Shown one piece after another: positions 27,001-30,000 of a stretch of 59,088 nt of DNA. The stretch is from a virus. Its lineage: Duplodnaviria; Caudoviricetes. Made by a program: the position numbers. Within the stretch, counting starts at the first letter, position 1. The number at the start of each line of letters is the position of its first letter. The DNA lies in the IMG/VR virus record IMGVR_UViG_3300035388_000078, positions 1-59,088 of that record; one strand, given 5' to 3'.

Positions 27001-30000
27001 TTCATTCGCATTCACATTTACATCGTTTCTATCCATTTTCTTTCTCCTCTTGCGGACCCTCTTCAGGACTCCCCGCTTTGATATTGCGGACCCTCTTCAG
27101 GGTTACCCGCTTTTAATGATTTTCACGGACCAATTGCAGTGCTACCCGTATTGTTCTGCAACTTAATTTTTGGGCTGCAGGCTATTCTTTTCTAAAACTC
27201 TTTTTAATTCTGCCCGGGTTTCGATAGGCTTTTCCGGGATATCACTGTCTTGCAACTGTGCTCGGACCGAATTATCTATCCATACTGGGGTATCCGTCTG
27301 AATACCACCATGCCCAGGTTTCAATATCTTTTTAGACTTCCCGTTACAATTCGGACACAGCGGCGCTACTTTCCATTTCTTCATAGGGAAGAGCAATTCA
27401 AATTCAGCCCCACAATCAAGACATTCATAATCATAAAGAGGCATCTCTATTTCTCCGCATTCAACAATTCTGCGTGTGCCATACCGGTTGACATCGAGAC
27501 GATATCACTCAAAGAAGGAGTATTATCTAATTCAAAAAAGTTTTCTTCCGTAATCGTTCCATGCTCCTCACAAAATCCAATCCCGCCTTGTTCTTTTAAT
27601 GGTACGGGCTCTTTGCCTTCCGCCCGACAACGAGGGCAATACATAGCATTCACATCCTGGCTGACATCATCCTGATTATCTTCTTCTTCCAGGGAGACAA
27701 TGTCCTGGGCGGAAAGCTCGGGTTCTGATTCGGTCTTAATATCTGGAACAACTTTCCTTGACACAGCAGGAACCGGTTCCATTTTGCCCTCAACCCCAGT
27801 ATTGATCCGGACCTGTGTTCGGGCATCTTGCCAAGCCAAAGCACCATCAAGGCATTTAATGGTCTGGACATTTTCTTCACACGGGAAAACATTATTAAGG
27901 GATTGAATCAGGTGCCGGCTGTATTCAATTATATCCTGGGCCTGACAGCCATTTACCCCAACCTCACTTACTGGATCAGACTGAATGATAAAACACACGA
28001 CTGGAGTAACCCCGGGGATTTCTTCCTTATTCTCAATGTGGATAAACGGTATTGATTTCGGGTTCATGCAAGCAAGGGCCTTAACGACATGACGCTGTTC
28101 CTTTGGCGTGGGAATGATTCTGCTACACCAGTCCTGCCATTGGATTGAAGGGTTGGCCACATCAATATTCTGAGACATCATAAAAGCAGAAATCATCTGC
28201 CCCGCCTCCATTGTGGGCAAGTTGGATTTTTCATGGTCAGAAAGAAAGGCCATGAATGAACACAGAGCTCCAGACACCACATGATTTAGTTTTTCCTGGC
28301 TCATTATAACGCCGCCCTTACCAAGCAATCCTTGGCCTCTAAAAGTTTGCGTAATCCAGCAGTCTTTTCTGCACTATCCGGAAGGGTATTTTCATATGCA
28401 AAGTGCTTCATGATAGGGGCACACCCTAAATGCTCCTGGTGATAAGGTAATTTTTTTTCCATATTACTCACCTCCTTTAAAGCCATAAATCCCTGACTGA
28501 AGCAGGAAGCCAAGAAGAAACCATATCTTGTCTTTGATCTTTTCCATGCAGCACTCAGCACCGATCTCTTCAGAATAGTTCTTTGGATCAACACAGGCAC
28601 TGGACTCGGTAATAACGAAGCCATTGACCAGAACACAGGTGACGATAGTGGTTTTGGTTTGGACACCGGGAATATCGGTGGTTGTGGTAAAGACCTTGCC
28701 GATCATGGCTTCAACATCTTTGATATTGATTTTGTTGTCTTCACCAACAATGGCAAGGTTCTGTTTGTCAAATTTTGCTTTAGGGCACCAAGAGACATAA
28801 CCGTCTTTATACACAACCATAGACCCTTCCGTTTCCGGATCTTCATCAGCAGGAATATCCCAGCCACGATATATATTGTATTCACCCAGGGTCATAGGCT
28901 TAGCATCTACCAATTTCACTCCAATAAACTTTTTCACATTCTTCTCCTTTTAAGCCGGTACCCCGGCAGTATCTTTTTCGGCAGCAGCTCCGACAGCCCC
29001 CGCCTCCATTTCTTGTTTCTCTACTTCCTGAAGGTCTGACTGTTTCTGCATAAGATATTGTTTCAAATGCTCGGCCCCTTCTTGGGAAAGACCGGCATCA
29101 ATTAATACTTGCATGGCAGGTCCGAGCTGATCTTCTCCAACTCTTTCCAGGATATCTTTCCAATTTTTGACATTCAGACCTTCAAGTATGGCTCTGCGGT
29201 CAATGACCTGGTGGTCATACAACCATTTTAACTGATCCTCTTCCTGGAGACTTGTCCGGGCAACTGTGGACCCGGATTCCACGACATAATTGTATCTCCG
29301 CCCACAAAGACTAACGCCCTGGAAGTCAACCCGGGTTCCCTTCACTTCAACCGATTCCATATTAACGCCAAAATTCTGGAAGAAGGAAATAGCCCACATG
29401 CCCCGTTGCATTGCGATCTGATCAACACTCCTGATCTTATGCTGAATCAAGACTGAATTGCGCTCTTGCAAGGCCACAATAGCCGAAGCCGCCGTCACGC
29501 CGGTTGGCTGAACGCCCCGGTCTGCATCCTCTATCTGATGTATTCGATCATGCAAACCGATTAAAATATCCAGTATCTTGAAAAAGTCATGTGGCAAATT
29601 AGGTACCTGGATAAACCGGATATCTGCATTGGGTCTGGTGGGCATCAAGACTAAATTGGGTTTATTGTTAATCATAGATCTAGTAATTCCGCATCCGGCC
29701 TCTACAATCAAAGGAGGGAACATAACCCGCATGATATAGGATGTCATTTTTGAGACAATTTCATCCACCTTTTTAATAATGTCCCCGGTCTGTTCCGCTG
29801 CCGAAAATCCCCATATGGACGTGGTATCTTCATATGAGTTAGCCCAGAAGAATGGAACTTTCCCCCAGGCATGGGTTTTATTGGTCTGTTCCGTAGGGAG
29901 ATTCCAGTTAATATTAGGATTTTCCATATCGTTGAGATAATGATTCCCACGATTGCAAACAGTAACAACCCGGATACCATCAGGGTACCGTCTCTGTCTG

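Follow-up and report, generated by a model that had tools for sequence, protein, structure and literature searches.

Three coupled genes fill the interval behind the portal gene

The window, by which we mean the whole 59,088-nucleotide stretch analyzed (IMG/VR virus record IMGVR_UViG_3300035388_000078), derives from a temperate, SU10-like phage of ~55 kb whose host is a Desulfobacula-like (sulfate-reducing) bacterium and whose prophage sits at the tmRNA gene. Three minus-strand genes, here called a, b and c, are translationally coupled and fill the interval 3' of the portal gene (positions 27447-28937). The portal gene itself (28950-30896, minus strand; phrog_156, E 3.6e-11; weak match to PF23899, SU10_portal) lies immediately upstream of gene a (28464-28937, minus strand), which starts with GTG 12 nt after the portal stop and encodes 157 aa, with an N-terminal SWxPK domain and an Acb4-family (PF13876) domain. 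One nucleotide separates the stop of gene a from the ATG of gene b (28304-28462, minus strand; 52 aa), an internally deleted member of a two-helix phage family, and the stop of gene b overlaps the ATG of gene c as TAATG. Gene c (27447-28304, minus strand; 285 aa) comprises an N-terminal extension, a Tad1-family domain, an acidic linker and a C-terminal CxxC...CxxH region.

Two nucleotides beyond gene c, and coupled to it, starts a 93-aa FmdB-type zinc-ribbon gene (27163-27444, minus strand; PF09723, E 1.4e-13; TIGR02605, 1.1e-13). It is followed, after a gap of 126 nt, by a putative scaffold gene (26302-27036, minus strand), which is named from its position directly upstream of the major head protein gene (25297-26268, minus strand; phrog_9953, E 6.3e-30) and matched no family in Pfam, PHROG and NCBIfam searches. 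The first-pass annotation had placed three tightly packed genes between portal and scaffold; their packing and coordinates were as described, but the FmdB-type gene intervenes between gene c and the scaffold gene. Pfam and PHROG searches recognized no head protease gene between the portal and major head genes. Further small, unrelated inserts in the operon are a zinc-ribbon gene (30896-31165) and a membrane protein gene (31165-31665).

Scanning positions 24800-35500 gave 26 promoter sites (19.2 expected) and 13 terminator sites (11.6 expected), signals that did not surpass those of shuffled sequence, and none of the sites within the cassette was convincing. From the tight gene spacing and the absence of such signals we infer that a, b and c are co-transcribed with the portal and head genes and would thus be expressed late. 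Across the whole window, PF24729 (the Acb2/Tad1 hairpin, by six-frame scan), PF11195 (Tad2) and PF21825 (Sequestin) had zero matches at E<=1, so that the window shows no additional gene for Tad2 or Sequestin.

Close relatives of the region did not emerge from the collections searched. Megablast of positions 25000-31000 against phage genomes returned nothing, gene c was not found in the genome contigs searched, and the portal was not found in viral contigs, metagenome contigs or five genomes with a similar SmpB. Likewise, none of 148 related loci carried the window's portal, capsid or terminase (tblastn, 1e-4).

Gene a joins a SWxPK domain to an Acb4-family domain

Gene a had been read as a SWxPK domain fused to a Gp49/66 domain, and both parts were recovered. 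PF13876 matched aa 72-148 (28494-28724, minus strand) with 97.8 bits against a cut-off of 27 (E 5.3e-28), and phrog_9467 matched the protein end to end (E 1.2e-50). The N-terminal domain (aa 1-64; 28746-28937, minus strand) carries the motif KDGYVSWCPKAKF and is predicted to fold as beta-alpha-beta-beta-alpha; Pfam gives nothing for it at E<=10. According to the available part of the Acb4 preprint, Acb4 is PF13876, in agreement with the initial assignment of Acb4 to the Gp49/66 family, and 8 of 8 purified Acb4 homologues bind 3'3'-cGAMP, some of them with extra extensions.

[quoted passage not shown] Searched against the PDB, the gene a family profile reached Acb4 (9e4w) at E 1.6e-6. VIA-align against 48,161 chains ranked 9e4w_A first (Z 7.1, rmsd 2.8, 75 residues), followed by release factors, hibernation factors and dsRBDs, which Acb4 itself resembles according to the accessible text of the Acb4 preprint. 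Foldseek also returned 9e4w with a probability of 1.00 and a TM by target of 0.57-0.59, though the E-values were weak (best 2.6e-2, none <=0.001); the lists of both programs for the whole model were occupied by the Acb4 domain (model residues 65-155). The profile and structure searches that had been proposed as a check thus point to Acb4. By its sequence, gene a is an Acb4-family protein, a member of the family PF13876 founded by the cyclic-dinucleotide sponge Acb4.

Gene a differs from SPO1 Acb4 in having the 64-aa N-terminal domain and in many of the ligand contacts. Three of the ten contact residues are identical (K36, F48 and I66, corresponding to K95, F107 and I125 in gene a), F62 is conservatively replaced by Y121, and the remaining six (E49, V56, Y57, N63, T70 and K81) are replaced non-conservatively; family members differ in specificity. 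Acb4 is a homotetramer with four pockets; most likely, gene a would likewise form a tetramer and sequester CBASS cyclic dinucleotides.

Gene b, a damaged member of a hairpin family

Members of the gene-b family were matched in 351 phage genomes by tblastn and in 545 cluster representatives at E<=0.001, and their core is normally a two-helix unit of ~56 aa. In the window, phrog_5120 and phrog_1761 match aa 24-52 of gene b. However, 22 residues comprising the first helix, present in 22 of 22 aligned relatives, are missing through an in-frame deletion, and gene b is therefore not an intact hairpin. Of the initial description as a short hairpin protein, the LP...EK motif stands while the hairpin does not.

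The further proposal that gene b is an Acb2/Tad1-type sponge was not supported. Besides the internal deletion, the family profile matched nothing in the PDB below E 0.7 and nothing in NCBIfam, and the hhalign probabilities were 0.15% to the Tad1-like family, 0.24% to T4 Vs.4/Acb2 and 0.15% to T4 Vs.3/TadIV-1. We also rejected the specific label Acb2, given the absence of similarity by sequence or profile. Like Acb2 (T4 Vs.4) and other PF24729 proteins, the gene-b family consists of small helical phage proteins; 4 of 23 members touched PF24729 at E<=1, and in the nearest Atlas clusters PF24729 occurs on 10-12% of members. None of the similarities is significant, however, and the best PF24729 match (P0074) falls in a separate N-terminal domain. 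A longer 120-aa ORF (28304-28666) was rejected as the true gene b, since it shares 203 nt with gene a and its homology to the family begins only past the internal ATG. Judged from sequence, then, gene b is a defective member of a family of small hairpin proteins found alongside sponges, and it is probably inactive in this phage.

A Tad1-family domain with a conserved pocket in gene c

The centre of gene c had been noted to follow the Tad1 pattern, and profile, fold and pocket residues bear this out. As a single sequence, aa 99-176 (27777-28010) match solved Tad1 at E 3.5e-5, and the family profile matched CmTad1 (8kbb) at E 2.4e-18, phiKZ gp184 at 1.6e-14 and CbTad1 at 1.8e-8 in the PDB. The Tad1 E-values of gene c, like the PF13876 E-value of gene a, lie far beyond chance. 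The domain covers aa 66-176 (27777-28109, minus strand). Its AF2 model (pLDDT 89.7) consists of an antiparallel sheet and two long C-terminal helices, as do the N-terminal sheet and two C-terminal helices of CbTad1 (7UAV/8KBE-H) and CmTad1 (8KBB-D). In the Foldseek comparison suggested earlier, ranks 1-11 and 15 were all Tad1 chains with TM 0.46-0.56, though the best E-value was 5.3e-3 and none was <=0.001. In contrast to Tad1, gene c falls below the Pfam model PF24729 (no match at E<=10); its relative P0005 scored 18.9 bits, under the cut-off of 27. Profile, predicted fold and pocket residues thus place the central part of gene c in the Tad1 family.

Whereas characterized Tad1 proteins are small and standalone (~125 aa), this domain is embedded in 285 aa with orphan extensions on both sides. 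Its nearest homologues are 36 standalone proteins of 93-135 aa, and a search of 5.8 billion proteins gave no relative with the full-length architecture; of the matching proteins, P0005 alone is of similar length, and it aligns over just the Tad1-like part. The C-terminal extension (aa 177-285; 27450-27776, minus strand) reads as an acidic stretch followed by a zinc-ribbon-like CPRC...CEEH motif and has no homologues apart from a weak match to PF24254 (E 0.018-0.087, below cut-off).

Mutation of F82, N92, R109 or R113 in CbTad1 abolishes binding of gcADPR and 2'3'-cGAMP (Tad1 preprint). These residues align to L136, N145, R162 and R166 of gene c, three of them identical and one, F to L, conservative, and the corresponding columns are the most conserved of the gene c family (L 33/33, N 33/33, R 33/33, R 31/33). 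At the trinucleotide site, by contrast, R88 and T95 of CmTad1 are replaced by E143 and K150, and only one of the five residues of the Tad1 hexamer interface is kept (Q98, E99, M102, W103 and K106 are D, G, A, W and A in gene c), which makes a Tad1-type hexamer (trimer of dimers) doubtful. The domain therefore keeps the residues of the gcADPR/dinucleotide pocket and has probably lost the cyclic-trinucleotide site.

A homodimer, as in Tad1, was predicted for gene c with an ipSAE of 0.86 compared to 0.00 for the best of 3 controls, a mark that 20 of 30 solved homodimers and 1 of 23 single chains attained. At least 98% of contacts agreed between runs, partner pLDDT was 86, and the modelled interface contains L136, N145 and R162; the predictor may here be reproducing Tad1 dimers that had already been solved. 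Most likely, the Tad1 domain would act as a dimer whose interface pocket takes gcADPR and/or 2'-5'-linked cyclic dinucleotides.

The losses in genes b and c could also mean that the cassette of this prophage is a remnant whose function is fading, gene b being broken and gene c degenerate. The deletion in gene b, the missing trinucleotide and hexamer residues of gene c and its lack of any full-length relative are consistent with such decay. Nevertheless, the reading frames of a and c are intact and both yield confident models, the pocket residues of gene c are preserved, and the glutamate at the trinucleotide Arg position is the family majority (E in 19/33, R in 6/33) and hence not a private defect of gene c. 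We therefore regard decay of the cassette as quite improbable.

A probable late-expressed counter-defence cassette inside the head operon

Taken together, genes a, b and c probably constitute a late-expressed counter-defence cassette, directed against CBASS and Thoeris, inside the head-morphogenesis operon. In most descriptions, sponges are encoded by small genes that are expressed early and lie in accessory regions; in this phage, members of two sponge families are translationally coupled to a portal gene. The arrangement suggests that counter-defence proteins are made with the capsid, or even packed into it, and it makes testable whether counter-defence is timed to capsid, portal and terminase triggers or delivered by the virion as in phiKZ.

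We analyzed the genomic context of cassette homologues in 44 phage loci. In 6 of these 44 sampled loci, the first 18 of which were hand-picked, the homologues lie within the interval between the portal and capsid genes. These phages belong to four portal families (phrog_64, phrog_533, phrog_156 and phrog_332). The other 38 loci place the homologues outside this interval, many in replication or nucleotide-metabolism regions, and one (L067) in the N4-like anti-signalling hot spot described in the available portion of the Ab09 preprint. In L003/L134, L017/L131 and L146, homologues of a and c are neighbours, as are those of a and b in L012, and in L007 the gene a homologue has a Tad2-like gene two positions downstream. 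Furthermore, the two parts occur naturally fused in P0005, with 66% identity to all of gene a and 55% to aa 66-179 of gene c. Such modular combination recalls the fused sponges Acb4-Tad2 of Pasteurella phage Pm86 and Acb4-Sequestin of Pseudomonas phage Ab09 (gp59), although in the window the sponge parts are separate genes. The parts of the fused-sponge literature available mention neither an Acb4-Tad1 pairing nor the SWxPK fusion partner.

The wide scatter of homologues, including the N4-like hot spot, raises the possibility that the portal-to-scaffold gap is simply a tolerated accessory site, so that the sponges work normally and their timing or place carries no particular meaning. The other small inserts in the operon (27163-27444, 30896-31165 and 31165-31665) fit this explanation as well. 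On the other hand, the same interval is used across four portal families, and the genes, being coupled in translation to the portal gene, would have to be expressed late with it wherever they came from. We consider a mere insertion site rather unlikely, and a late-expressed counter-defence cassette remains our preferred reading.

Relation to head proteins and possible packaging

This phage also codes for a DarB-like protein of 4698 aa (phrog_10089, 1707 bits), and DarB of phage P1 is packaged in the head. Gene c, and possibly gene a, might similarly enter the procapsid via their extra domains and be ejected with the DNA beside the DarB-like protein, sequestering signals from the moment of infection. 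The orphan extensions of gene c, its position between the portal and putative scaffold genes and the six loci with homologues in the portal-to-capsid interval agree with this idea, and so does the match of its family profile to phiKZ gp184. In the accessible text of PMC11297242, gp184 is a minor protein on the inside of the capsid and is cleaved by the head protease; under the name Tad1, it is described as held in the capsid by a wedged N-terminus while the C-terminus is injected (bioRxiv 10.1101/2025.11.23.690004; review PMC13282480), providing a precedent for a capsid-bound and injected sponge.

Both gp184 (PDB 8Y6V chain I) and gene c thus contain a Tad1-like domain inside a longer head-linked protein, with the head link of gene c given by gene position. 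However, the Tad1 part is C-terminal in gp184 and central in gene c. Matches are confined to the C-terminal part of gp184 (the single sequence of gene c aligns over aa 93-173, its profile over the Tad1-like core), and the extensions of gene c are unlike the gp184 N-terminus. Moreover, gp184 is processed by a head protease in a jumbo phage, whereas no such protease gene was recognized in the corresponding interval of this ~55-kb temperate phage. Since most homologue loci lie outside the interval and a late-operon position is no proof of packaging, we judge delivery of the sponges by the virion to be unlikely.

Alternatively, gene c and/or gene a could have been co-opted as minor head proteins for assembly or stability, with nucleotide binding lost. 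Their location inside the head operon would suit this role, as would the loss of hexamer and trinucleotide residues in gene c and the generic dsRBD-like fold of Acb4, which is common to ribosome factors; in phiKZ, gp184 fills a gap between the minor capsid protein gp86 and a capsomer (PMC11297242, available text). Yet no columns of the gene c family are more conserved than those of the ligand pocket, a pattern that speaks for selection to bind ligand, and the close homologues are small, standalone and scattered in non-structural regions. In addition, gp184 is dispensable by transposon sequencing, according to the part of bioRxiv 10.1101/2025.11.23.690004 available. A purely structural role is therefore very improbable.

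The SWxPK domain is fused to several sponge families

The SWxPK domain had been said to be often fused to Tad2/DUF2829, and its matches elsewhere agree: PF11195 is the partner in 4 of 9 and PF13876 in 5 of 9. In L069 the domain is joined to a separate PF21825 (Sequestin) domain (52.3 bits), and in P0065 to the gene-b family. In various proteins it precedes Acb4, Tad2, Sequestin and Acb2/Tad1-hairpin domains, and standalone copies exist; its structure matches in the Atlas had TM values of 0.82-0.94. We rejected the SWxPK domain as a Sequestin itself, the all-helical PF21825 model being unmatched and the predicted SWxPK fold alpha/beta. Given that it travels with several sponge families, the domain could recognize an additional signal or help in assembly.

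Two uncharacterized modules are thereby brought out through 'guilt by fusion', the rule that led to Sequestin: the SWxPK domain, which has no Pfam family and is fused to four sponge families, and the gene-b family. In the most far-reaching version, which we put forward as speculation and think unlikely to hold, the capsid of a small temperate phage would be loaded in advance with gene c (Tad1 plus orphan targeting extensions) and perhaps gene a, to be injected with the DNA and the DarB-like protein; the SWxPK domain would be either an eighth, so far undescribed family of sponges or a common module for delivery or assembly, and the intact gene-b family a further undescribed family associated with sponges.

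With this locus, phages of Desulfobacterota join those known to carry Acb4 and Tad1 families. If the sponges bind as predicted, the phage would benefit against hosts with CBASS or Thoeris; among four genomes close to that of the host, with 89-98% identical SmpB, a SMODS domain occurs in two and a ThsB-type TIR in three.

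Organization of the cassette within the head operon

Judged from sequence, genes a, b and c form a real sponge-type cassette with two uncharacterised companion modules, in which genes a and c are members of two known families of sponges, phage proteins that sequester bacterial immune-signal nucleotides. The first-pass annotation had placed this cassette between the portal and scaffold genes. On the minus strand, the portal gene (28950-30896; phrog_156, E 3.6e-11; weak PF23899) is followed by gene a (28464-28937; 157 aa), whose GTG start lies 12 nt past the portal stop with AAGGAG ahead of it, by gene b (28304-28462; 52 aa), whose ATG lies 1 nt past the gene a stop, and by gene c (27447-28304; 285 aa), whose ATG overlaps the gene b stop as TAATG. 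Thus, the three genes lie where they had been placed, but they do not contact the scaffold gene: an FmdB-type zinc ribbon gene (27163-27444, minus; 93 aa; PF09723, E 1.4e-13) starts 2 nt past gene c, and a 126-nt gap separates it from the putative scaffold gene (26302-27036, minus). The latter matched no family in our searches, and we therefore assign its role from position; the major head gene comes next (25297-26268, minus; phrog_9953, E 6.3e-30). The large terminase gene (32398-34014) is upstream of the portal gene with three small genes between. A consensus scan for promoter- and terminator-like sites gave no excess over shuffled sequences and none that was convincing inside the cassette, so it is reasonable to infer that the cassette is co-transcribed with the portal gene.

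The head operon has unusually many small inserts. The three genes between terminase and portal (30896-32398, minus) are unexplained: one product has 240 aa and matches no family, one is a membrane protein (166 aa) and one a zinc-ribbon protein (89 aa). Downstream of the major head gene, a gene for a 133-aa protein is followed by a strong terminator-like hairpin (24833-24867, minus), which has about 11 consecutive G and a T tract and may mark the end of the head transcript.

The record is a complete 59,088-base IMG/VR provirus in which almost every gene is encoded on the minus strand. The prophage is integrated at ssrA, as marked by an integrase gene (56846-58183, plus), a tmRNA gene (58204-58559; tag ADDYNYAVAA) and host smpB (58624-59088; PF01668, E 2.7e-58). 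This SmpB shares 98% identity with its counterparts in Desulfobacula sp. and Desulfobacteraceae assemblies; among four genomes with similar SmpB, which do not include the host's own, two encode a SMODS domain and three a ThsB-type TIR domain above Pfam cut-offs. Elsewhere, the prophage encodes a 611-aa protein with an N-terminal Gp3-like recombination-directionality domain (48394-50229, minus; PF18897, 94 bits) and, at its left end, a 694-aa protein with a polysaccharide deacetylase domain (888-2972, minus).

Gene a carries an Acb4-family domain

Residues 72-148 of gene a scored 97.8 bits against PF13876 (Pfam cut-off 27). The first-pass annotation had assigned Acb4 to this Gp49/66-type family, as does the Acb4 preprint in its available text, where SPO1 Acb4, a PF13876 member, is a tetramer with four 3'3'-cGAMP bound, and 3'3'-cGAMP was bound by all eight purified homologues, some of which carry extensions. 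The Acb4 structure 9e4w was matched at E 1.2 by gene a as a single sequence and at E 1.6e-6 by profile A3, built from 35 sequences of the gene a family. With the AlphaFold2 model of gene a (pLDDT 91.1), VIA-align ranked 9e4w_A first of 48,161 (Z 7.1, rmsd 2.8, 75 residues), followed at Z 5-6 by release factors, hibernation factors and dsRBDs, the same structural neighbours that are reported for Acb4 itself (Acb4 preprint, available text). Foldseek matched 9e4w with a probability of 1.00 but an E of only about 3e-2, and two unrelated low-probability chains ranked higher. Three of the ten ligand contacts of SPO1 Acb4 are identical in gene a (K95, F107, I125), whereas F62 corresponds to Y121 and the remaining contacts are different.

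Part of the gene a model also aligned with BFVD proteins from Erwinia phage phiEa2809 and Yersinia phage TG1 whose annotation includes a ryanodine-receptor (RyR) domain. A gcADPR sponge resembling RyR is described in the available text of the Ab09 preprint, so this domain may be a further fusion partner.

Gene c contains a Tad1-family domain

As a single sequence, residues 93-176 of gene c matched CmTad1 (8kbb, E 3.5e-5) and phiKZ gp184 (8y6v_I, E 2.8e-4), and A1, a 33-row alignment of the domain family, matched CmTad1 at 2.4e-18, gp184 at 1.6e-14 and CbTad1 entries at about 1.8e-8. With the model of residues 60-180 (pLDDT 89.7), Foldseek ranks 1-11 and 15 were all Tad1 chains (TM 0.46-0.56; best E 5.3e-3, none at 0.001). 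The profile and structure matches thus bear out the Tad1 pattern that had been read in the centre of gene c; the absence of any match to Pfam PF24729 counts against membership. A tblastn search against phages gave 47 records, every one limited to the central part and including the annotated Tad1 genes of SBSphiJ7 and SPG24, and with residues 60-180 alone as the query, 36 standalone proteins (93-135 aa) were recovered.

According to the available text of the Tad1/Tad2 preprint, F82, N92, R109 and R113 of CbTad1 form the gcADPR/2'3'-cGAMP pocket, and R88 and T95 of CmTad1 bind cyclic trinucleotides at the trimer interface of the hexamer. The aligned pocket residues of gene c are L136, N145, R162 and R166, and these columns in A1 are L, N and R in 33/33 sequences each and R in 31/33. 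In contrast, gene c has E143 and K150 at the trinucleotide positions (the arginine column holds E in 19/33 and R in 6/33 family members), and of the Tad1 hexamer interface residues Q98, E99, M102, W103 and K106, gene c keeps the tryptophan only. Homodimer prediction for the domain gave an ipSAE of 0.86 (best of three controls 0.00; partner pLDDT 86; at least 98% of contacts shared between runs), a mark attained by 20 of 30 solved homodimers and one of 23 single chains, and the modelled interface contains L136, N145 and R162. Because Tad1 dimers are already solved, this pass may merely mirror likeness to them.

The flanks of gene c comprise residues 1-69, an acidic linker and a C-terminal CPRC...CEEH motif, and had no relatives among 5.8 billion proteins; the sole match of comparable length there, P0005, covered the Tad1-like part only. 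In a 139-aa protein encoded beside a Bbp19-like gene, between portal-type and protease genes (L147:5537-6288), a TFIIB-type zinc ribbon at the N-terminus precedes a Tad1-like domain, echoing the zinc-ribbon-like motif of gene c.

Two companion modules accompany the sponge domains

The SWxPK domain (gene a residues 1-64), with a predicted beta-alpha-beta-beta-alpha topology in the AlphaFold2 model, matched no Pfam family at E<=10 and is an uncharacterised companion module in the sponge cassette. Searching with residues 1-62 found nine proteins, in which it is fused to PF13876 in five and to PF11195/Tad2 in four; it is also fused to Tad2-like sequence in L052, L055, L057 and L061, to Sequestin/PF21825 in L069 (52.3 bits) and to the gene b family in P0065. 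These proteins verify the SWxPK-Tad2 fusions named in the first-pass annotation and widen the partners to Acb4, Sequestin and the gene b family. As a standalone 69-aa ORF it occurs in L067/L068, and in L067 its neighbours encode a RuvC-like protein and a virion RNA polymerase, a setting described in the available text of the Ab09 preprint as an N4-type anti-signalling hot spot. Structure matches to residues 1-64 in the ESM Atlas (TM 0.82-0.94) are leads rather than tests: matching clusters carried Tad2 (76 members), Sequestin (87), Acb4 (51), Acb4 plus Sequestin (56), Tad2 plus Sequestin (89) or PF24729 (on 79% of 121 members), standalone clusters of 75-95 aa also matched, and the aligned part lay outside every Pfam family. 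BFVD gave 19 matches at E<=0.001, with a 270-aa Tad2-like protein at the top (36% identity over 162 columns).

Gene b aligns through residues 24-52 with phrog_5120 and phrog_1761, neither of which has an assigned function. The family is widespread, with 351 phage records by tblastn (including Vibrio 99, Mycobacterium 62, Erwinia 48 and Acinetobacter 43) and 545 cluster representatives at E<=0.001 in a full HMMER scan; none of the 60 records listed has a functional annotation, most being 'hypothetical protein' and a few carrying generic domain labels. In alignment A2 the family core is about 56 aa with two helices, and 22 residues (helix 1) present in all 22 other aligned members are missing from gene b, which therefore has an in-frame internal deletion. 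The family matched nothing in the PDB (best E 0.74), and profile comparison showed no similarity to the Tad1-like family (hhalign probability 0.15%), T4 Vs.4/Acb2 (0.24%) or Vs.3/TadIV-1 (0.15%). The suggestion that gene b is a sponge-type hairpin thus found no support, and gene b is not recognisable as an Acb2. PF24729 is touched by four of 23 family members at E<=1, best in a separate domain of P0074, and lies on 10-12% of members in Atlas neighbours. Gene b is probably, by its sequence, an inactive copy of an uncharacterised family that accompanies sponges. Two family proteins (P0053, P0054) have two tandem conserved hairpin cores in one chain, and in Vibrio phage 82E32.3 the homologue lies downstream of helicase and nuclease genes.

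Cassette parts recur together and near head genes

P0005 (302 aa), in which a-like and c-like parts are fused, is 66% identical to all of gene a and 55% to gene c residues 66-179, with PF13876 at 95.3 bits and PF24729 sub-threshold. Separate a-like and c-like genes neighbour each other in L003/L134 and L017/L131, in L146 a Tad1-like gene comes after an Acb4-like one, and in L012 a b-like gene after an a-like one. Thus, cassette parts travel together in unrelated phages. In another locus (L058:3218-6447), a gene a homologue lies directly downstream of nicotinamide phosphoribosyltransferase and ribose-phosphate pyrophosphokinase genes, an NAD-rebuilding pair that would itself counter NAD-depleting defences.

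We annotated neighbours in 44 loci, the first 18 hand-chosen and a further 26 spanning the remaining sequence clusters (L059 left out). The homologue lies between a portal or minor head protein gene and a scaffold, protease or major head gene in L011, L147, L055, L060 and L009, and directly after the portal gene in L146, so that this group makes up 6/44, with portals of four families (phrog_64, 533, 156 and 332). It abuts the large terminase gene in 5/44 (L012, L150, L069, L112, L142) and follows the major head gene in L003; the remaining loci are tail, lysis, replication or nucleotide-metabolism regions. These counts indicate that portal-to-capsid placement recurs, rather than that it is preferred. 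Neither sponge genes in this placement, nor the SWxPK domain, nor an Acb4-Tad1 pairing is described in the literature passages searched; the lists of homologues and fusions that supplement the Acb4 and Sequestin preprints may bear on these points.

The cassette offers a testable packaging hypothesis, in which gene c would, by analogy, be a packaged sponge. In phiKZ, gp184 is a minor protein of the inner capsid surface cut by the head protease (PMC11297242, available text), and a transposon-sequencing preprint (bioRxiv 10.1101/2025.11.23.690004, available text) names it Tad1, with its N-terminus wedged in the capsid and the freed C-terminus injected; the available text of a review (PMC13282480) repeats the injection. 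Consistent with packaging, the phage also encodes a DarB-like protein in a single 4698-aa ORF (3449-17545, minus; antirestriction match phrog_10089, 1707 bits). Given its methyltransferase, helicase and lytic transglycosylase/endolysin-like segments, we read this ORF as a giant protein of several domains that belongs to the virion module. The adaptor (24147-24812, minus; PF24175, E 1.5e-12) and, through its weak PF23899 match, the portal resemble those of phage SU10, which suggests that this temperate phage has an SU10-like podovirus morphotype.
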